DNA of 64,000 bases from Candidatus Kerfeldbacteria bacterium (GTDB taxonomy: Bacteria; Patescibacteriota; Patescibacteriia; SBBC01; CAIJZX01). Below, in pieces: positions 6 through 8,852 of the stretch. The translations under genes and the position numbers were made by a program. Under the pieces are notes generated by a model, which saw only the letters and a list, made by a program, of their open reading frames with translations, searched no databases and had not been told where the DNA came from. Where the stretch lies: the NCBI GenBank assembly GCA_963731735.1, contig CAVSWO010000002.1, positions 402,891-466,890 of the forward strand, written 5' to 3'. The number at the start of each line of letters is the position of its first letter. The first letter of the stretch is position 1.

Positions 6-545
6 TTAGGCGCGATAGAGCAGCAGCGCGCTGCCACCCGGACGCTTTGGATTTTCGACTCGTTGTTCGAGGGGCCAATCCGGCAATGCAAACCCGAACG
101 AAATAACGCGGGTGCCGGCCCGGAGTTTGTTTCGAAGCGTGTGTCGGAGCTTTGGGACGAAATTGGTAATAAAAAAACCGTAGACCAGCGTGGCCGCAGA
201 CAAGTCCTGTCGGTATAAATCAGCTCGGAGAATCGTGACATTCCGAAGCTGGCGGGTTCGCCATTTGGCCAACAGATACGGCCACCATTGAATTTCAATC
301 CCGATGCATTTGGTATCAGGAAAACTGGTTGCTAAGGCGGTCAGAACACGCGCGTCACCGCAGCCCAATTCATACAGCACGTCCGACGGTTGCAACGGGA
401 GATTGTTTTGTAGCCACGCAATTGCCCAGCGCGGCGTACTGACGTATGGCAGCCCCGTTCGCAAGGTTTGCCAGAGCGTGTTGATTGCGAACACCAGCGC
501 GATCAATGTCGCGAACAGTAGCACAACGAAAAAGGCTAACACCAT
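6..545 (-). CDS. membrane-anchored class I SAM-dependent methyltransferase
   Basis: Methyltransferase motif I (LYELGCGDARV) follows an N-terminal hydrophobic helix. I chose the start at the internal Met (MVLAFF...) because ATGCTATACT lies 7 nt upstream; the ORF extends to 638. Confidence 0.55.
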   Translation of the reverse strand: MVLAFFVVLLFATLIALVFAINTLWQTLRTGLPYVSTPRWAIAWLQNNLPLQPSDVLYELGCGDARVLTALATSFPDTKCIGIEIQWWPYLLAKWRTRQLRNVTILRADLYRQDLSAATLVYGFFITNFVPKLRHTLRNKLRAGTRVISFGFALPDWPLEQRVENPKRPGGSALLLYRA

Positions 546-1856: not shown

Positions 1857-2867
1857 ATGCCTAATACCCAGCTCGATATCGAGCAAAAAACCGGTACGAG
1901 GATTTCGCAAGCCGTTGGTTTAGCGCTGGTAATTGGCGCTGGGGCGCTTGGTGCCGCAGCCTTTTTATTTATTGGCTCGCAGGAGAAATTATCAACGACC
2001 TCTCCCGGAGTAGTCAAAAAAAGTGCTACAACGCAAAGTGCGGTTGATCTTACAAGCGCGGAGATTTTTTCAGCCGATCCTACGAATGTCACCTACACAG
2101 GCTATGATCAGGCGGTTGCGGAAACGGAGGCGATTAAAAATCCGGATGATATAACAATTACTATTACAACACCATCTGAAGGGGCGTTGGTAGACGACTC
2201 AAATGGCAACTATCTGACGGCCGAACTTAATGACCCGAACCATAAAGTTAGCTCGCTGTATGTTCGAACTTTTAACGACCGTTACAAATTCATGATTGGG
2301 TGGAATAATGACACAACAGCTCCATACCAGTGGAACACAGCGCTTTCCTTGTATCCAAGCGGTGAATATCGGGACGTTATCTATGCCCGGGATGCGGCGG
2401 GCAATTTTCTCGCCTGGACTGATGTCATGTACACAAAAACACACAATTGCTACTATCTCGGCTATCAAGATATGACGTTGACAGCACCCACTGATACTAT
2501 TACAGCTGGAAAAACATTTACGATGACTGCTAGTGTAAAGAATAATATACGTGGTGCGTGCCAAAATAATTATGCAGTTTCCACTACGTCACCATTATCT
2601 TTGGACTCGCTTTTACCGGAAGGTTGGACGGCAACTACTGACCCGGATGGATATATGTCAATTGGAATCGGGGAGACCCGCGACTACACCGTGAGCGTCA
2701 AGGTGCCAGTCTCAGCTACCACCGGAACCTATACAGTTGGTGTTACAAGTCAACGGCAAAACACTGGCTTCATTGTAACGAAAGAAGCTACCGTAAACGT
2801 AGCTGCGAACACTGGCGGCGGAGGCGGCGGCGGTATCAAGATCGATCCAGGCGACCTAGCCCCATAA
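1857..2867 (+). CDS. membrane-anchored surface protein (Ig-like/CARDB-like), Gly7 tract near C-terminus
   Basis: N-terminal TM helix, Thr/Ser-rich beta-sandwich-like sequence, and GGGGGGG near the C-terminus. A terminator follows. Confidence 0.5.
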   Translation: MPNTQLDIEQKTGTRISQAVGLALVIGAGALGAAAFLFIGSQEKLSTTSPGVVKKSATTQSAVDLTSAEIFSADPTNVTYTGYDQAVAETEAIKNPDDITITITTPSEGALVDDSNGNYLTAELNDPNHKVSSLYVRTFNDRYKFMIGWNNDTTAPYQWNTALSLYPSGEYRDVIYARDAAGNFLAWTDVMYTKTHNCYYLGYQDMTLTAPTDTITAGKTFTMTASVKNNIRGACQNNYAVSTTSPLSLDSLLPEGWTATTDPDGYMSIGIGETRDYTVSVKVPVSATTGTYTVGVTSQRQNTGFIVTKEATVNVAANTGGGGGGGIKIDPGDLAP

Positions 2868-2883
2868 GACAACCTACTAGCAA

Positions 2884-2908
2884 GCGGCGGAGTAATCCGC
2901 CGCTTTTT
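2884..2908 (+). terminator. rho-independent terminator
   Basis: gcggcgg-agtaat-ccgccgc hairpin followed by ttttt. Confidence 0.7.
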
Positions 2909-3014
2909 AGTCATATGAAAAATCCTTTATTGCAAAAGGACTTTTTGAAATTCTCTTAAAACTTCAGCCAATGCCCCATAGAGCTACGTCGGACCAGCGG
3001 ATCTAGTTCGACAA

Positions 3015-3042
3015 TAAAAAAAGCCGAACGGAATAGTTCGGC
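3015..3042 (-). terminator. rho-independent terminator (minus strand)
   Basis: An A8 run precedes the gccgaac-ggaata-gttcggc hairpin on the plus strand, which gives a hairpin plus U-tract on the minus strand. Confidence 0.65.
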
Positions 3043-3057
3043 ACACAGGAAGTAGCG

Positions 3058-3360
3058 TTATTCAGATTGTTCTTTGGTCTGCGACCACTGGTTCGCGAAA
3101 TACCGCATGTACGCAACGAAGGCGATGATCAGAACCAAGGCCGCGAACCCAAATACATCAAGGAGCGTGAGCGTAACCGCAATCCCAACCAGAAAAAAAA
3201 CAATCAAGAACCGAATCAGTGCCTGAACTCGCTTTTCGGCAGCCAGTCCAGAGTCTCCGATCATCGGAAAGGGTGTCCACATGACCCAGAGCATATGAAA
3301 ACCGCGGAGTGCAAAAATGAACAAGACGCCACACGAGGCCAATAGCGCGAATTTCGGCAT
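3058..3360 (-). CDS. small integral membrane protein
   Basis: 100 aa with 3-4 predicted TM helices. GGAGGA lies 9 nt upstream and a terminator lies downstream. Confidence 0.5.
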   Translation of the reverse strand: MPKFALLASCGVLFIFALRGFHMLWVMWTPFPMIGDSGLAAEKRVQALIRFLIVFFLVGIAVTLTLLDVFGFAALVLIIAFVAYMRYFANQWSQTKEQSE

Positions 3361-3426: not shown

Positions 3427-3542
3427 CCCTGGCGCTGGCCTACTTTCCCCGCGGTATGCCCCGCAGTATCATCGGCGCTGGCTGGCTTAACGACCGTGTT
3501 CGGAATGGGAACGGGTGTGGCCCAGTCGCTCGAAGCACCAGG
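3427..3542 (-). rRNA. rrf: 5S rRNA
   Basis: Reverse complement reads CCTGGTGC...CACACCCGTTCCCATTCCGAACACGG...GCGCCGATGATACTGCGGGG...GCGCCAGGG, which matches the canonical 5S sequence. Confidence 0.9.
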
Positions 3543-3942
3543 GTACTGAGACGATGTCTCTGGTAATCAATGTAAAGTGAGGAAACAAGCGAACGCTTGC
3601 TTCTGGTTCTGGTGAATTCCGCACCAGCTTGGTGCAGTTTGAAGAATTATCTCGTCCTGTGCGTCCCAACAGTCCGTCGGAACGTGATCAGTTAGTACGG
3701 TTCGGCTCAACACCTTACGGTGCTTACACCTGCCGCCTATCAACCGTCATGTCCCTGGAGTCTTAACGAAAGCTAATCTTGAGGACGGCTTCACGCTTAG
3801 ATGCTTTCAGCGTTTATCCCTGCCGAACGTCGCTACCCAGCAATGCCCCTGGTGGGACAACTGGTACACGAGAGGTTCGTTCTTCCCGGTCCTCTCGTAC
3901 TAGGGAAGAATTCTCTCAAGTTTCGACGCCCACAGTGGATAG

Positions 3943-3994
<52 letters not shown>

Positions 3995-4007
3995 TGGCGA
4001 ACAGCCA

Positions 4008-4066
<59 letters not shown>

Positions 4067-4579
4067 GCGCCGTCGCTGTGGACGCTTGGGCGCGATCAGC
4101 CTGTTATCCCCGGAGTAACTTTTATCCGTTGAGCTTCCGCCGTCCTATATGCGTACGGTCGGATCACTAAGTTCTACTTTCGTAACTGCTCGGCGTGTAG
4201 GTCTTGCAGTAAAGCTGGCTTGTGGCGTTTGCCCTATCGATCCGGATTTCCATCCCGACCTAGCCAACCTTTGTAAACGCCTCCGTTACCTTTTAGGAGG
4301 CAACCGCCCCAGTCAAACTACCCACCAGACACTGTCTCCCGTGCCGGATTCAGGGCGCGAGGTGAGTGCACAGACACAGCGAAGCGTGGTATTTCACTGT
4401 TGACTCCACCGCAGCCTACGATCCGGACTTCAAAGTCTCCCACCTATGCTGAGCATCGCACATCTGTGCACAATGCCAAGTTGTAGTAAAGCTTCACGGG
4501 GTCTTTTCGTCCAATGATGGGTAACCGGCATCTTTACTCGTCTTGTAATTTCGCCGAGTCCCTCGTTGAGAGAGTTCTC

Positions 4580-4632
<53 letters not shown>

Positions 4633-5404
4633 CATTGTGCTGGGCGAGACAACCTACGGTTTTCTCGTCCCACGCCACTCTTTCCCTTTTGCGTGTCGCC
4701 ACCTCCATCCTCGCGCAAAGCAAGTTTGACGCTCGGCTGTTCGATGCTCGACCTGTCTTTTCTTTGTGCGGCGCTTCGCTATCGCTCGCGCCGCCTTGGG
4801 CTGAGTGGGGATACTCACTGTATCGCTGCATATTGCTATGCAGATCAGACTATATCTTCAACCTTGCTTTTAGAAAAAACAGAATGGGGCGGCGGCAGAC
4901 AAGCTTCGTTGTCGTCGCCCCGCAAGGTGCTCGGGTACTAGTCGTTGGGGGAATGCTAGGGTTCTTCATCGTGATCGCCCTCCTCATCTTCGGGTTCGGG
5001 CGGAACTTCTCGGTGAAGCTCAGTCGTAATCTCTTCGCGATCTATTCTCTGAAGCAGGACCTCCTTGGCCCAACTTAGAGACAGAATCTCGAGACACTTT
5101 ACTTGAGCTTCATCATCATTTGATGCTTCGAACTCATAATCTTGAAAGGTATCTCCGACCATCCAGCTTTCCTGGAAAGTCTGACGGATACGGTATTTCA
5201 TTTCACCTCTCCTTTCCCTGCGAATTGTCCGATCATTCGATCGGAGTTTTCCGCATATTTCCGCGTATTTATGGACCAATCACGAATTACTTCGTGATAG
5301 GCAGTTACTTTTCCTTACTGCACTGTTTCTGTTGGAACTCTTGGAACTGCTTACTTCCATAACCGTCGCTAGTCCTTCGCCCAACCACTTTCGTGATTGA
5401 GCAA
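4633..5404 (-). mobile_element. group I intron in 23S rRNA at E. coli-equivalent site ~1931
   Basis: The exon sequence CCTAAGGT|..|AGCGAAATTCC is interrupted by 772 nt. The 5' exon ends in U and the intron ends in G. It contains an S/P7'-like AAGATATAGTC (4848-4858), an R-like CAACGACTAG (4938-4947) and a P-like AATTCGCAGGGAAA (5213-5226). Confidence 0.75.
4956..5201 (-). CDS. intron-encoded small acidic protein (81 aa), no known homing-endonuclease motif
   Basis: ATG preceded by GGAAAGGAGAGGTGAA on the rRNA strand. Protein is MKYRIRQTFQESWMVGDTFQDYEFEASNDDEAQVKCLE...PEPEDEEGDHDEEP. No LAGLIDADG, GIY-YIG, HNH or His-Cys box. Confidence 0.45.
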   Translation of the reverse strand: MKYRIRQTFQESWMVGDTFQDYEFEASNDDEAQVKCLEILSLSWAKEVLLQRIDREEITTELHREVPPEPEDEEGDHDEEP

Positions 5405-6185
5405 ACCTTAGGACGGTTATAGTTACCGCCGGCGTTCATCAGCGCTTCGGATCAAGGCGTAAACCTCTCCCCTTAACGTTCTGACACTGGCCAGGCATCA
5501 GCCCCTATACATCAGCTTGCGCTTTGGCAGGGACCTAAGTTTTTGGTAAACAGTCGCTTGACGTCATTTAGCTGCGGCCCAGCTTGCGCTGGGCAGGCCA
5601 TATACCGAAGGTACGGCCATTGTTTTGCCGAGTTCCTAAACGAGGGTTCTCTCGTACGCCTTAGCAGATTTGCTGCCCACCCACCGGTGTCGGTTTACGG
5701 TACGGAAACGTCGTGACATAACCAGCGGACTTTTTCTCGGCCCCCGTGTCGTCTGTATTGGCTTGCCCTTGCGGGTTCGTCTGCGCCTTGCGGCCCGCAC
5801 ATAACCAAAGTACGGACAGATCTCACGGATGCGTCATCCACTGGGTAATCACGCCGTTGCACGGGAATATTAGCCCGTTGTCCATCAGCTACGCCTTTCG
5901 GCCTCGCCTTAGGGCCGGCTCACCCTGGGTCGATTTGCGGTGCCCAGGAAACCTTGGGTTTACGGCGGACGGGGTTCTCACCCGTCGTTGTGCTACTTAT
6001 ACCTACATTCTCACTTCGGTGCACTCCACGGTCGCTCGCGCTTCCGCTTCGGCGCACACCGAACGCTCCGCTACCACTGGAAGGTCATCACTGACCAACC
6101 AATCCTCAGCTTCGGTACGACACTTGAGTCCCGATACATTTTCGGCGCTTCGGGGCTCGACCAGTGAGCTGTTACGCTTTCTTTA

Positions 6186-6216
<31 letters not shown>

Positions 6217-8815
6217 TTGTTTGAGCCTCAAAACTACCTTTCAAACACTGAGTGTCGATTTAGGGACCTTAACTGGAGGTCTGGGTTCTTTCCCTCACGT
6301 CCGGTGGAGCTTAGCCCCCACGGACTGACTGCTGAACTGTAATACTGCGGCATTCGGAGTTTGGTTGGGGAGACTAGGATTGCTCCACGCCACCCCATTC
6401 AGTGCTCTACCACCGCAATGGATCATTCAACGCTAGCCCAAAAGCTATTTCGCGGAGAACCAGCTATCGCCGAGTTCGATTGGAATTTCTCCTCTACCCA
6501 CAACTCATCCCAGAGCGTTGCACGACTCACGGGTTCGGACCTCCACGACGTTTTACCGCCGCTTCATCCTGGTCATGGGTAGCTCACCCGGCTTCGGGTC
6601 TGTTACGGATCACGAGTGCCTCATGAGCATGATGATCACCGAAGTGACCGCCACACTCATTCAGCACATGCGCCGGTGAAGGCTCGCTTTCACTATGACA
6701 TCGGCCTGGACGGCCTTAGTCGAGCGATCCGTAATAACTCGTAGGTTCATTCTTCAATAGGCACGCTGCAACCCCGCCGAAGCGAGGCCGCAACTGTTTG
6801 TAAGCGATATGGTTTCAGATACTATTTCATTCCCCTCCCGGGGTGCTTTTCACCTTTCCCTCACGGTACTGGTTCACTATCGATCATCAACAATATTTAG
6901 TCTTGGAAGTCTAGTCCTCCCAGCTTCCCACAAGATTTCACGTGTCTCGTGGTACTTGAGGAATAGAACCAGTAAAGCTTTAACCGATTTCGCTTACGGG
7001 ACGATCGCCCTGTGTCGTAGGCCGTTCCAGGCCGCTTCAGCTATCGATTGGTCATATTCATTCTCCCACTGTAGAAACTGCAGTGAGAGAAAGAATCAAC
7101 ATGCGCTTTACTCCTAAAGATGTAAGCTTTAGACGTTCTACTCTCGCAACCCCCAACCAGTATGCGGGCTTACACCCTTGCACCCTTGCGGATGCAACTG
7201 GAAAGGTTTTGACTGTTCCCGTTTCGCTCGCCACTACTCAGGGAATGTTCTCCGCCAAAGGCGGAGGTTGTTTTCTGTTCCACTGGCTACTAAGATGTTT
7301 CAATTCACCAGGTTACCTTCGCATGCCCTATGTGTTCAGGCACGGATGTTCCGAAATTTCCTTCGGAACGGGTTTCCCCATTCGGACATCCCCGGATCAC
7401 AGGTTGGTTGCCACCTTCCCGAGGCTTTTCGCAGGCTCCGACGTCCTTCATCGTTCGTTGATGTCGAGGCATCCACCATACGCCCTTATGTGTTCCGACG
7501 AACTGTCGAGACACGCACCCCTGCACTTACGCAGGGGGTAGCAGGTACGAGATTCGATGTATCGCTTGATACACCAATCTTTTCTTCTTTCACCAGAACC
7601 ACAAACAGACGTTCGTGATTCTGCGAGTATGATGCTTATTTCCTCTTACTTTACTCTATGTCTTGATTACCCTTATTCAGTTGTCGATGATCGGGTGATT
7701 CGAAGAGAAACCGCTTCGGTTTCTCTTGCGACACATCTCTTCCCGCCAGGTGAGTCGACTCTCGTCGCTGCACCGAAAGCAAGTTTCGGTTCGCGACTTC
7801 GCGGTTCGACCCGTCTGTATCTGCGCGGCCTCGCTATCGCTCGGCCGCAGACTGGGTTAAAGAAATGTTCGAGATCAACAGCACTGGAGAGATCACGAAC
7901 GGGTCGTGATCAGATCAGTATGGTTGAAGAAAGAACAGGTGGATTGGTTTAAGGGAATGGAGCATCGAGAGTGCCCGCGAAGCCTACGAAGAGAAGCGGG
8001 GGGTACATTCCCTCAGATGCTCCACCACGGAGGTTGGCGTCCAGCGGGACGTGGGAGTTGTTTCCGGCTCGCTTTTCGTTCGCCGTTCCGCACGTCCCGC
8101 CGGGACAAAAGGTCGAGAGATGAGAAGATTGCTCTTCTCCAGCTGCTGTCGGAGGCTGAATTCACGACCAACTGTTTCTCCCGACCAGTAATCTCCAGGA
8201 GGGCGTCCGCGGTTTTCCGCATGCGCCGTGCATGTGACCACAGAAGTGATCGCCACGAACGCTCCTGCCTGGAGTCGGGGAGCCCTCATGTATCCGGGCA
8301 AGGATGAGGACGTGTTCCCCGAATAAGGTTGCGCCGATGTCCCGCCGCCGACTTCTTCTCCCCCAGAGAAGGTTAGCAGCATCGATCGACGCAACAGCTG
8401 GTCGGGCCCGCGACTGTCGGATGATTTTGTGCGCTTGCGCGCTGCCATCACGAACTACGGGCGGGCCCGATAGATTGAAGAGACGTTCCAGTGTACGCCT
8501 GCGCGGACAGCCGAACCGCTGTCTGGCAATTGTTCCTCGAACGTCTCATATTTTGAAGAGCGAAGTAGGATCACGCACGGCATGAGACTGCTTCGGACTT
8601 CAAGTGGTAAAAAGAGCTGGAGACTGAAAAACCGCCCGTCGGCGGCTCATTTTTGGACAGACACGTGTACGCGCTATCAGCTAGCCGTCGACATTCTCCT
8701 TGCGGTTGGTCTGTTCCATATGAACCGTCATCATTTATTAGTGGGCTCAGCATACAGGTTTTGTTTGTCTGCGTCAAGGCGGATTCGGGACAACCGGGGG
8801 AAAATATCCGGAAAG

Positions 8816-8844
8816 TTGACTAACGGCCAAAAAAATGATATAAT
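8816..8844 (+). promoter_or_regulatory. sigma70-type promoter, TTGACT-17-TGaTATAAT
   Basis: Consensus -35 and extended -10 elements with an ideal 17-nt spacer. The -10 ends 8 nt before the ATG at 8853, which implies a leaderless mRNA. Confidence 0.6.
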
Positions 8845-8852
8845 ACGGTCAA

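Follow-up and report, generated by a model that had tools for sequence, protein, structure and literature searches.

The 23S rRNA gene in the window, the whole stretch of 64,000 nucleotides of DNA that was analysed, is probably interrupted by a mosaic group I intron at LSU-1931. The intron is placed in a lineage named here class B, and its proposed architecture combines two guides for the 5' exon, a cassette in P6 that holds a real gene, and a structured module at the 3' end.

The host gene lies on the minus strand and is followed by a 5S gene; a 16S gene was not found within the 64,000-nt window. The features that frame the intron are the following.

3673..7500, minus strand: 23S rRNA gene, the intron host (Rfam LSU_rRNA_bacteria, 2231 bits over model positions 1-2925, cmscan)
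3427..3542: 5S gene, downstream of the 23S gene (cmscan)
5404..4633, minus strand: group I intron of 772 nt, after E. coli U1931 (LSU alignment, Intron_gpI match and direct reading)

In the LSU alignment, ...GUCCUA is separated from G..AGCGAAAUUCC by a single large insertion, which is printed there as 775 nt. By direct reading, the 5' exon ends ...AACCGUCCUAAGGU with its final base, a U, at window 5405; the intron begins with U and ends with G at window 4633; and the 3' exon, AGCGAAAUUCC..., starts at window 4632. Neither boundary can slide: the first base of the intron is U but that of the 3' exon is A, and the last base of the 5' exon is U but that of the intron is G. Intron position n corresponds to window coordinate 5405-n. 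The insertion point is taken to be U1931|A1932 in E. coli numbering, counted on the E. coli sequence, and position 1931 is part of the subunit interface, with helix 69 on one side and helix 71 on the other. The original prediction had described exons continuous with E. coli apart from a 772-nt insertion, a 5' exon ending in U and an insertion ending in G; the alignment and the reading of the sequence agree with the first of these, and direct reading with the other two. The 23S rRNA in the window shares 82% identity with its counterpart in a Candidatus Kerfeldbacteria MAG and 76-78% with the others compared, which makes the host bacterium a probable member of the Patescibacteria (CPR).

The covariance model supports the original group I assignment in part. 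Intron_gpI (RF00028) gives a significant match over 5308..4826 in a 1-kb search (E 2.4e-6), but its 32.7 bits lie under the gathering score of 50 bits. Homologous introns occur at LSU-1931 in L047 (31 bits, E 6e-5) and, in compact form, in L121 (47.7 bits, E 4e-9); the scores of all three are significant, yet all fall under the gathering score. The model imposes a penalty for the 260-nt ORF and for long insertions in P8. The core elements, in intron numbering, are arranged as follows.

Within 5214..5265, minus strand: P3 5' strand (140-144), J3/4, P4 (150-155) and P5 hairpin (160-177), from the Rfam alignment
Within 5214..5265, minus strand: P4' (181-186) and P6 5' strand GGGAA (187-191), from the Rfam alignment
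Within 4827..4953, minus strand: P6 3' strand UUCCC (452-456), J6/7, P7 5' strand GACUA (462-466) and P3' (471-475), from the Rfam alignment
Within 4827..4953, minus strand: extended P8 (478-543), then J8/7 with the P7 3' strand AAGAUAUAGUC (547-557), from the Rfam alignment
Within 4827..4953, minus strand: P9 hairpin with a GCAA loop (563-578), from the Rfam alignment

Helices P3-P9 were placed by hand and then compared across relatives. Compared with L047 and L121, P4 has compensatory changes at four positions, P7 covaries as GACUA/UAGUC, GACUG/CAGUC and GACCA/UGGUC, and P3 and P8 also covary, a pattern that supports a conserved P3-P9 core. The core-like motifs quoted in the original prediction, AAUUCGCAGGGAAA (179-192), CAACGACUAG (458-467) and AAGAUAUAGUC, were all located, and its reading of them as group I elements gains from the covariation of P3, P4, P7 and P8. 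The 5' splice-site U stands in a G.U wobble with a guide and the intron ends in G, as in group I introns generally. Together these features argue for a group I intron at LSU 1931. Its own P3 contains one internal G.A mismatch, P1 has only 4 bp and P10 only 2 bp. Among the matches listed in a genome scan, canonical L1931 introns come closest to the core segments. Searching the intron for promoter-like or terminator-like sites returned none. A 36-nt exact P4-P6 pattern had no match in the species-representative genome contigs, and the intron of this genome is therefore absent from that set.

Recognition of the 5' exon appears to be divided between two separate guides, which places the intron in the CPR-typical class B lineage. 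The elements involved are these.

Intron 103-106, minus strand: internal guide GCCU, pairing with exon AGGU, with G103 opposite U-1 (G.U)
Within 5273..5302, minus strand: P2 hairpin with a GUAA loop (intron 107-126), then GGUCC (128-132), from sequence reading
Within 5361..5375, minus strand: GGACU (intron 30-34), 5' strand of a helix with GGUCC 128-132, from covariation
Within 5361..5375, minus strand: upstream exon guide AGCGACGGUU (intron 35-44), complementary to the exon at 9/9 positions
5410..5418, minus strand: 5' exon -14 to -6 (AACCGUCCU, 3' strand of helix 69), pairing with the upstream guide
5377..5404, minus strand: 5'-terminal hairpin with a GAAA loop, from the first intron nucleotide (intron 1-28), with compensatory changes in L047 and L121

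The P2 hairpin corresponds to the first stem in the Rfam alignment, and the GCCU guide is homologous to the GCCUUAG guide of canonical L1931 introns. The exon and the upstream guide covary, C-11 occurring with a guide G and G-11 with a guide U or C, and in L121 exon U-12 stands opposite a guide A. The GGACU/GGUCC helix is replaced by UGACU/AGUCA and GGAUU/AGUCU in other introns, and the 5'-terminal hairpin is present in all class B L1931 introns among the matches listed. The two exon pairings and the GGACU/GGUCC helix cross one another on the sequence, so that they would have to coexist in a pseudoknotted junction or else follow one another in time. Two other pairings were considered and dropped. 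A guide GGACUAG, with U-1 opposite A29 or G31, conflicts with the covariation of GGACU with GGUCC and with the homology of GCCU to the canonical guide. The loop of a 3' hairpin, AACCGUAGG, might have bound the upstream guide as a mimic of the exon, and in L121 it does not covary with that guide. The internal GCCU guide and the second, upstream guide had both been overlooked in the original prediction.

In the proposed pathway, the intron would be transcribed within pre-23S rRNA and would then fold. The GCCU guide would form the G.U pair at the splice site while the upstream 10-nt guide would hold exon -14 to -6. Free guanosine would attack after U1931, and the terminal G would direct exon ligation, restoring the sequence of helices 69-71 with a junction that would read ...CCUAAGGU|AGCGAAAUUCC... 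Until splicing, recognition by two guides would occupy one strand of helix 69. Two accessory pieces would travel with this ribozyme: a 260-nt P6-loop cassette, consisting of a Shine-Dalgarno sequence and an 81-aa gene carried as a passenger, and an RNA module of ~190 nt ahead of the 3' splice site.

The cassette consists of the following.

4956..5213, minus strand: ORF cassette in the P6 loop, with the Shine-Dalgarno sequence AGGAGAGG at 5213..5206 and the 81-aa ORF
5201..4956, minus strand: acidic ORF of 81 codons plus stop, from the ORF list

The ORF list confirms the ATG behind GGAAAGGAGAGGUGAA and the 81-aa product ending PEPEDEEGDHDEEP that had been described from the sequence. Since 8.7% of shuffles of the intron yield an ATG-ORF of at least 81 codons, length by itself is no proof of a gene, and the evidence comes from homologues. 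A phmmer search of 1.84 billion representative proteins found two (E 5e-8 and 8e-6), here called P0004 and P0005, with 41-45% identity to the window protein (P0001). The three members are alike in length, start and domain layout, a Shine-Dalgarno sequence precedes all three genes, and their alignment has 21 invariant columns, with several acidic residues invariant. Nucleotide differences among the three are distributed over codon positions as 29/19/45, 28/20/41 and 29/24/32, a third-position bias, and ~60% of identical residues in the 29/19/45 comparison are encoded by different codons. By these comparative measures, the ORF appears to be a real gene in the P6 loop and to belong to a previously unannotated family of three small acidic proteins; with three members, the alignment behind both the conservation and the structure model is very thin. 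The claim that the ORF is novel stands, as no database family was matched. A search with the three-member profile found no further members, and a word-indexed search of 5.8 billion proteins returned only the window protein itself.

P0005 is encoded at the corresponding place in P6 of another group I intron, which interrupts a 16S gene near position 788. Outside the generic core, most of the RNA of these two ORF-bearing introns is different. The closest relatives of the window intron among the matches listed, L047 and L121, are without the ORF, and the non-coding P6 inserts of L047 and L045 resemble it no better than shuffles do (z 0.5 and -0.1). P0004 is free-standing on the opposite strand, between trmD and a KH-domain gene adjoining rpsP.

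AlphaFold2 predicts residues 1-60 of the window protein confidently from the single sequence (pLDDT ~88), and the predicted fold of all three members is beta-beta-alpha-beta followed by a disordered acidic tail. The pI is 4.1-4.5 across the three, and the net charge is -16 overall and -7 in the folded core. With E values of up to 10 allowed, searches of Pfam, NCBIfam and PHROGs gave a sub-threshold YhzD entry for the window protein (E 0.19) and nothing for its homologues; the sole other entry, with PADLOC included, was PglX (E 0.02), for the window protein alone. A sequence-profile search of the PDB found no match, and neither a phage collection searched by tblastn nor IMG/VR gave anything significant. 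The profile searches likewise returned no LAGLIDADG, GIY-YIG, HNH or His-Cys family for the ORF, the predicted structure shows no nuclease fold, and tblastn with four LAGLIDADG proteins of sister introns detected no remnant in the intron. The absence of these four signatures, noted in the original prediction, is upheld by the profile searches and tblastn. A GIY-YIG-like reading, suggested by a 'YRI ... VGD' spacing that resembles GIY ... YIG, was rejected: the required Arg, Glu and Asn are not conserved, Pfam gives no match, and no GIY-YIG protein stands among the fold matches listed. By sequence, predicted fold and charge, the protein does not appear to be a homing endonuclease or a maturase.

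The likeliest of the alternatives, though itself unlikely, is that the protein represents a minimal homing endonuclease of a new type, or a mobility factor, which cuts intron-less rRNA genes or other conserved targets and so has its gene and the intron copied into them. Its distribution is indeed like that of a homing endonuclease gene. Two of the three members lie in P6 loops, at 23S-1931 and 16S near 788, and the third is free-standing on the opposite strand in the conserved rpsP / KH-domain gene / trmD cluster. In sister introns the place of the ORF is taken by LAGLIDADG genes, the closest listed relatives have no ORF, as expected of a gene that is gained and lost, and the invariant positions include several acidic residues. 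Genes for homing endonucleases (LAGLIDADG, GIY-YIG, HNH, His-Cys box, PD-(D/E)xK) resemble the ORF in P6 placement, in occurrence in different introns, in absence from sister introns and in having a free-standing copy in an operon. The 81-aa protein matches none of these families in sequence or fold, is folded over only ~60 residues, and is strongly acidic rather than basic.

That the insert is not removed by self-splicing, and either stays in mature 23S rRNA or is excised by RNases without ligation like an intervening sequence, is quite unlikely. Such an outcome would fit the Rfam score under threshold, the P3 mismatch and the very short P1 and P10, and a Simkania group I intron at the same site is reported to remain unspliced, according to the title of reference 28 in PMC11270868. 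Against this, compensatory changes maintain the core helices among relatives, and the last 55 nt are 100% identical in two genomes whose 23S rRNA is only 82% identical, which indicates functional constraint at the 3' splice site. A 772-nt insert between helices 69 and 71 should be harmful. The text of PMC11270868 on this point, citing a metagenome study, further states that CPR rRNA insertions are removed from transcripts. RNase III-processed intervening sequences are simple extended stem-loops in helix 25 or 45 of 23S that have no ribozyme core, whereas the window insert contains a group I core and is found at position 1931, between helices 69 and 71.

Excision by splicing remains the preferred reading. 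The original prediction had proposed a maturase or regulator, which can be phrased as an intron-specific splicing cofactor or a regulator of splicing or rRNA maturation. The gene does sit within the ribozyme, the loci of all three members (23S, 16S and the rpsP-trmD cluster) have to do with ribosome biogenesis, and the weak P3, P1 and P10 of the window intron might need help in folding. No positive evidence for such a role emerged, and the strongly acidic charge (net -16; core -7) disfavours direct binding of RNA or DNA. L047 and L121 keep the same outer architecture without the ORF, the ORF-bearing introns share little RNA beyond the generic core, and one family member lies outside any intron. 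A maturase or regulator is therefore very unlikely. That the ORF is no gene, but a frame left open by chance or what remains of an endonuclease gene after decay, is hardly credible: the frequency of such frames in shuffles and the solitary hit among 5.8 billion proteins would allow it, but the 'decayed endonuclease gene' of the original prediction is contradicted by two conserved homologues of the same layout, each with its own intact Shine-Dalgarno sequence, by third-position bias, by the confident single-sequence structure prediction and by the lack of any LAGLIDADG remnant.

The reading retained is that of a passenger gene, which might be translated either from the precursor or, after excision, from the intron, and might act by binding protein rather than nucleic acid. 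At low confidence, it could serve as an inhibitor or nucleic-acid mimic, or it could partner basic proteins in the manner of a chaperone. The closest known systems include small acidic inhibitors from phages whose fold joins a beta-sheet with a helix (phi29/VMY22 p56, T7 Gp2). As a more general and tentative proposal, CPR rRNA introns may be able to carry non-endonuclease cargo, with a conserved, tiny acidic family that rides on the intron, owes to it an expression at the level of rRNA, and acts on a protein target (as a mimic or inhibitor, or as a ribosomal-protein chaperone), and the 3' extension may be a portable RNA module that moves between intron peripheries and the rRNA leader. The ORF family suggests that conserved non-endonuclease genes can fill the same niche in two different rRNA introns, and raises the question of what an acidic protein gains from, or gives to, an rRNA intron.

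A comparison with known introns at this site shows how much is shared. Site 1931 had been named as a known group I position, and this is confirmed by insertions at LSU-1931 in at least 120 GTDB species and by published accounts (PMC6125680, PMC11270868). Archaeal LSU-1931 introns have been assigned to subgroup IB4 (PMC6125680), and in CPR the position is site 23IS7 in the nomenclature of PMC11270868. That the window intron may itself be of subgroup IB4 is hinted at by the likeness of its core segments to canonical L1931 introns. L1931 introns of Thermotoga, Simkania, archaea, organelles and CPR (23IS7) have the same site, a U in a G.U pair and a terminal G, along with the same P3-P9, GACUA and AAGAUAUAGUC as P7 strands, and an ORF looped out of P6. 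The window intron differs from them in that its cargo is not LAGLIDADG, its Rfam score is under the gathering threshold, its guide is shortened to GCCU and supplemented by the upstream guide and 5' hairpin of the class B module, and a structured module of 190 nt precedes its 3' splice site. Since L1931 introns are common in bacteria, especially in CPR, the intron itself is of a known kind; group I introns at LSU-1931 are textbook material, CPR rRNA genes are full of them, and the cargo matters more. Their commonness in CPR had escaped the original prediction.

The CPR rRNA insertions surveyed by Tsurumaki et al. 2024 (PMC11270868) resemble the window insert in having a probable CPR host, a 23S-1931 position and an Rfam-model group I signature at the E-value level. 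The survey's account of its intron ORFs describes annotation by Pfam only, with LAGLIDADG_1 predominant at 1931, so that an ORF without a Pfam domain would count there as ORF-less. Its passages on insertions contain neither the two-guide architecture nor the 3' module of the window intron. ORF annotation through Pfam is described both there and in the relevant text of a second bacterial intron survey (PMC13011429), and this would explain why only endonucleases have been seen.

The remaining part of the intron lies between P9 and the 3' splice site and has a second copy outside it.

4633..4824, minus strand: structured 3' RNA module of ~190 nt, from P9 to the 3' splice site (minimum free energy, covariation and model R1)
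7692..7860, minus strand: second, diverged copy of the module in the 23S leader (model R1, full length, 63.9 bits, E ~1e-13)

The extension of ~215 nt behind the S element that had been pointed out earlier measures 215 nt to the 3' splice site. The module folds with a minimum free energy of -73 kcal/mol (z -3.96), is 83% identical to that of L047, with the final 55 nt identical, and has 86.7% of cells paired against 26-46% with slid partners. It scores 198.8 bits with covariance model R1. By this covariation, the extension appears to be an RNA module, and it most likely serves as a peripheral stabiliser or as a domain that positions the 3' splice site, because P10 has only 2 bp. Antisense ORFs over the two copies (4566..5078 and 7557..7952, plus strand) were rejected as genes, as the window and L047 use different frames for the same nucleotides and indels of 1-2 nt separate the copies.

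Peripheral extensions of group I introns (P9.1/P9.2-type, P8 or P5) are likewise structured, non-coding and outside the core, and like the module they can lie between P9 and the 3' splice site and be missing in compact relatives. The module differs from them in recurring at other positions, including outside introns, and it matches no Rfam family. Among the matches listed, its sites are the 3' tails of L1931 introns, the P8 extension of the L1951 intron of L075, and the 23S leader. No convincing ORF was found in the leader region (7550..8850). Two guides and a portable 3' module with a leader copy would offer testable handles on how introns are integrated into ribosome assembly in minimal genomes. 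The leader copy lies ~190 nt upstream of the 23S 5' end and is ~72% identical to the intron copy over 78 nt; that the 215-nt extension is a discrete, conserved RNA module with a paralogue in the 23S leader had been overlooked.

The finding is real. The intron itself is a variant of a well-known type; the genuine novelty is its cargo, which by sequence comparison appears to be a conserved, non-endonuclease family of acidic mini-proteins residing in two different rRNA introns. The rRNA genes, the insert and a second copy of the RNA module at its 3' end are arranged in the window as follows.

Features of the rRNA region
3673..7500, minus strand: 23S rRNA gene, full-length bacterial (Rfam)
3427..3542, downstream of the 23S: 5S rRNA gene (Rfam)
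5404..4633, minus strand: intron insert, 772 nt (read from the sequence)
7860..7692, minus strand: second full-length copy of the intron's 3' RNA module (covariance model R1, 63.9 bits, E ~1e-13)

An Rfam scan found no 16S gene within 64 kb of the 23S-5S pair, so the rRNA genes are unlinked. The LSU alignment contains a single large insertion, between ...AACCGUCCUA and AGCGAAAUUCC. The 5' exon ends with ...CCUAAGGU at window position 5405, the 3' exon starts with AGCGAAAUUCC at 4632, and the flanking bases leave no room to shift the boundaries; the insertion point corresponds to U1931|A1932 of the E. coli sequence. Intron aside, the 23S is ~130 nt longer than the Rfam model, and further small expansions are therefore present. 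Of the loci compared, its closest counterpart is the 23S of L047, a Candidatus Kerfeldbacteria MAG with an intron at the same site (82% identity, versus 76-78% for the others); the host is therefore probably a CPR bacterium. The L047 gene has a second group I intron further downstream (L047:901-1215, minus strand; Intron_gpI 49.9 bits), and the window gene has no intron at that position.

The motifs named in the original prediction, along with its Shine-Dalgarno sequence, 81-codon ORF (5201..4956) and 215-nt tail, were all found in the sequence, confirming the observation. At the gathering threshold, Rfam reported no intron in the window. A 1-kb search gave an end-to-end Intron_gpI match at 5308..4826 (32.7 bits, E 2.4e-6); the same-site introns of L047 and of L121, a metagenome contig with a compact 394-nt intron, scored 31 bits (E 6e-5) and 47.7 bits (E 4e-9), respectively. 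The helices were placed by hand and compared across relatives.

Intron helices located by hand (intron position n is window position 5405-n)
140-144 with 471-475: P3
150-155 with 181-186: P4
160-177: P5
187-191 with 452-456: P6
462-466 with 553-557: P7
478-543: P8
563-578: P9, with a GCAA loop

Across relatives, both strands of P4 are altered at four positions, P7 appears as GACUA/UAGUC, GACUG/CAGUC and GACCA/UGGUC, and covariation extends to P3 and P8. The weak spots of the window intron are a G.A mismatch in its own P3, a P1 of 4 bp and a P10 of ~2 bp. On structural grounds, the helices P3-P9 and their covariation identify the insert as a group I intron; its score stays below the curated Rfam cut-off for membership.

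LSU/1931 is a standard IB4 intron site in archaea (PMC6125680). In CPR bacteria, whose 23S genes contain insertions in 82% of cases, the site is named 23IS7 and its main cargo is LAGLIDADG_1 (PMC11270868). When one genome per GTDB species was scanned, at least 120 23S genes had a non-A after ...CCUAAGGU. Among the matches listed, the inserts concentrate in two size ranges, 200-330 nt and 620-800 nt. They also split into two classes. Class A has a short loop at the start, then the guide GCCUUAG. Class B, mostly CPR, has a hairpin from nucleotide 1, AAGGACU and a 9-10-nt complement of exon positions -14..-6, followed further 3' by a guide cut down to GCCU, the P2 hairpin and GGUCC. The window intron is class B. 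Mini class-B inserts (205-250 nt) are found at 23S-1931 in many CPR genomes (loci L062, L073, L085, L025, L063, L019 and others). They combine the 5' hairpin, the upstream exon guide and a AAGAUAGAGUCC element with the guide ACCU, which places A, not G, opposite the splice-site U; Intron_gpI, searched up to E 0.01, matched the L1931 insert in none of the five mini loci scanned (L062, L073, L085, L025 and L019).

The upstream guide follows its exon by covariation: exon AACGGUCCU pairs with GGGAC(U/C)GUU, exon AACCGUCCU with (A/G)G(N)GACGGUU and, in L121, exon AAUCGUCCU with GGGACGAUU. The helix GGACU/GGUCC also covaries, being UGACU/AGUCA and GGAUU/AGUCU in other introns. The upstream-guide, internal-guide and GGACU/GGUCC pairings cross on the sequence, and either make a knotted junction or form sequentially. 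The variable stretch between the two guides holds a tandem direct repeat, AGUUCCA-AG-AGUUCCA (window 5332..5348, minus strand; intron 57-73), absent from L047 and L121.

The intron is a mosaic. Among the matches listed, its outer parts are common only to L047 and L121; relative to L047, identity is ~73% over the first 130 nt and 83% over the 3' tail, whose last 55 nt match exactly. Its core is closest, among the same matches, to canonical class-A introns, and the region around P6'-P7 to a 16S intron bearing a homologue of the ORF product. The outer parts resembling L047 and L121 while the core resembles class A suggests that modules have been exchanged between introns.

The ORF fills the P6 loop almost exactly, its Shine-Dalgarno sequence starting one base past the P6 5' strand and its stop codon lying three bases ahead of the 3' strand. 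An ORF of such length occurs in 8.7% of intron shuffles, so length alone is not evidence. A word-indexed search of 5.8 billion proteins returned nothing besides the ORF product, P0001, itself. When phmmer was run exhaustively over 1.84 billion cluster representatives, two homologues emerged: P0004 (79 aa, 45% identical, E 5e-8) and P0005 (80 aa, 41% identical, E 8e-6). A profile search with this family added no members. The three-member alignment has 21 invariant columns, a Shine-Dalgarno sequence precedes all three genes, the counts of nucleotide differences at first/second/third codon positions are 29/19/45, 28/20/41 and 29/24/32 for the three pairs, and ~60% of identical residues are encoded by different codons. 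Together these features identify the ORF, at the level of sequence, as a gene under selection; the family has three members only, which limits every inference on the protein.

P0005 is encoded in an 838-839-nt insertion of a 16S gene; the insertion interrupts GGAUUAGAUACC near E. coli position 788 and matches Intron_gpI weakly (21 bits, E 0.008). Its ORF has CCCGCAGGGAAG on one side and UUUCCCUCAACGACUA on the other and sits in P6 just as the window ORF does. This 16S gene (L128:700-4900) is interrupted at least three times: by an insertion with a 23S_rRNA_IVP-type ORF, by the ~788 intron and, near the 3' end, by a group II-like insert that holds a LAGLIDADG_1 ORF. P0004 (L122:1862-2101) is free-standing: its gene runs on the opposite strand, with trmD on one side and a KH-domain gene adjoining rpsP on the other, and has a Shine-Dalgarno sequence and a terminator-like hairpin of its own. 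Its slot is about where rimM would be expected in many bacteria. At the end of the L122 locus, a 16S gene begins. Inside the window intron, no promoter-like or terminator-like site was found, so its ORF would be transcribed as part of the pre-rRNA, with either the precursor or the excised intron serving as the message for translation.

LAGLIDADG genes occupy the ORF's P6 place in sister class-B introns, P6 is a plain hairpin in L121, and the P6 inserts of L047 and of another compared locus, L045, are non-coding and unrelated to the ORF. The suggestion of a decayed endonuclease gene is not supported: the family is conserved, and no LAGLIDADG remnant is detectable in the window. AlphaFold2 models P0001 confidently from the single sequence (pLDDT 78) and reaches pLDDT ~88 over residues 1-60 with the three-sequence alignment, predicting strands 2-13 and 16-26, helix 29-42, strand 47-58 and a disordered Asp/Glu/Pro tail. 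Foldseek against the PDB gave nothing below E 0.05, and no nuclease fold is among the fold matches listed. P0001 thus has no recognisable mark of an endonuclease or a maturase. All three members are strongly acidic, with a pI of 4.1-4.5 and a net charge of -10 to -16, of which the folded part has -7 to -8; this would favour a protein over a nucleic acid as the partner.

A secondary novelty is a portable RNA module. The 192 nt after P9 fold at -73 kcal/mol (z -3.96 versus shuffles). In a three-sequence alignment, 86.7% of cells are paired versus 26-46% with slid partners, and seven pairs are altered on both sides. Copies differ by 1-2-nt indels, arguing that the extension is non-coding. R1, a covariance model built from this extension, recovered the three introns, the second copy ~190 nt ahead of the 23S 5' end and, more weakly (29 bits), the extended P8 of the L075 intron at 23S-1951. 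A five-sequence alignment has 20 pairs altered on both sides versus 9.6 +/- 2.0 when shuffled (none of 500 shuffles as high), though it was fitted to R1 and is thus biased towards structure. The module matched no Rfam family. On the simplest reading, it would act in the intron as a peripheral stabiliser or, P10 being nearly absent, position the 3' splice site.

L075 is a Candidatus Peribacteria MAG whose introns at 23S-1931 and 23S-1951 are separated by a 20-nt exon, AGCGAAAUUCCUUGUCGGGU (L075:1166-1185), the second starting at 1186. An exact AAGGGAAAG-N15-GAAAACCGUAGGUU occurs in an intergenic spacer of L133, a 4-kb IMG/VR viral contig (3205-3280, minus strand), adjoining a 391-aa ORF (2036..3211, plus strand) with Cys-rich zinc-finger-like motifs (CRYCH, CNHCS). 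L133 has no rRNA or intron signal and scores only 18 bits with R1; the pattern may be chance or a minimal terminal hairpin.

In nucleotide sequence, the second copy in the window is nearer to the L047 intron copy (78% identical over 93 nt) than to the window intron copy (72% over 78 nt). It lies in a region of ~1.3 kb upstream of the 23S (7501..8850), neither strand of which has a convincing ORF. A promoter-like site at 8777..8749 (minus strand) would give a leader of ~1.25 kb, and a 30-nt stretch at ~8620..8648 recurs with 97% identity upstream of the L047 23S.
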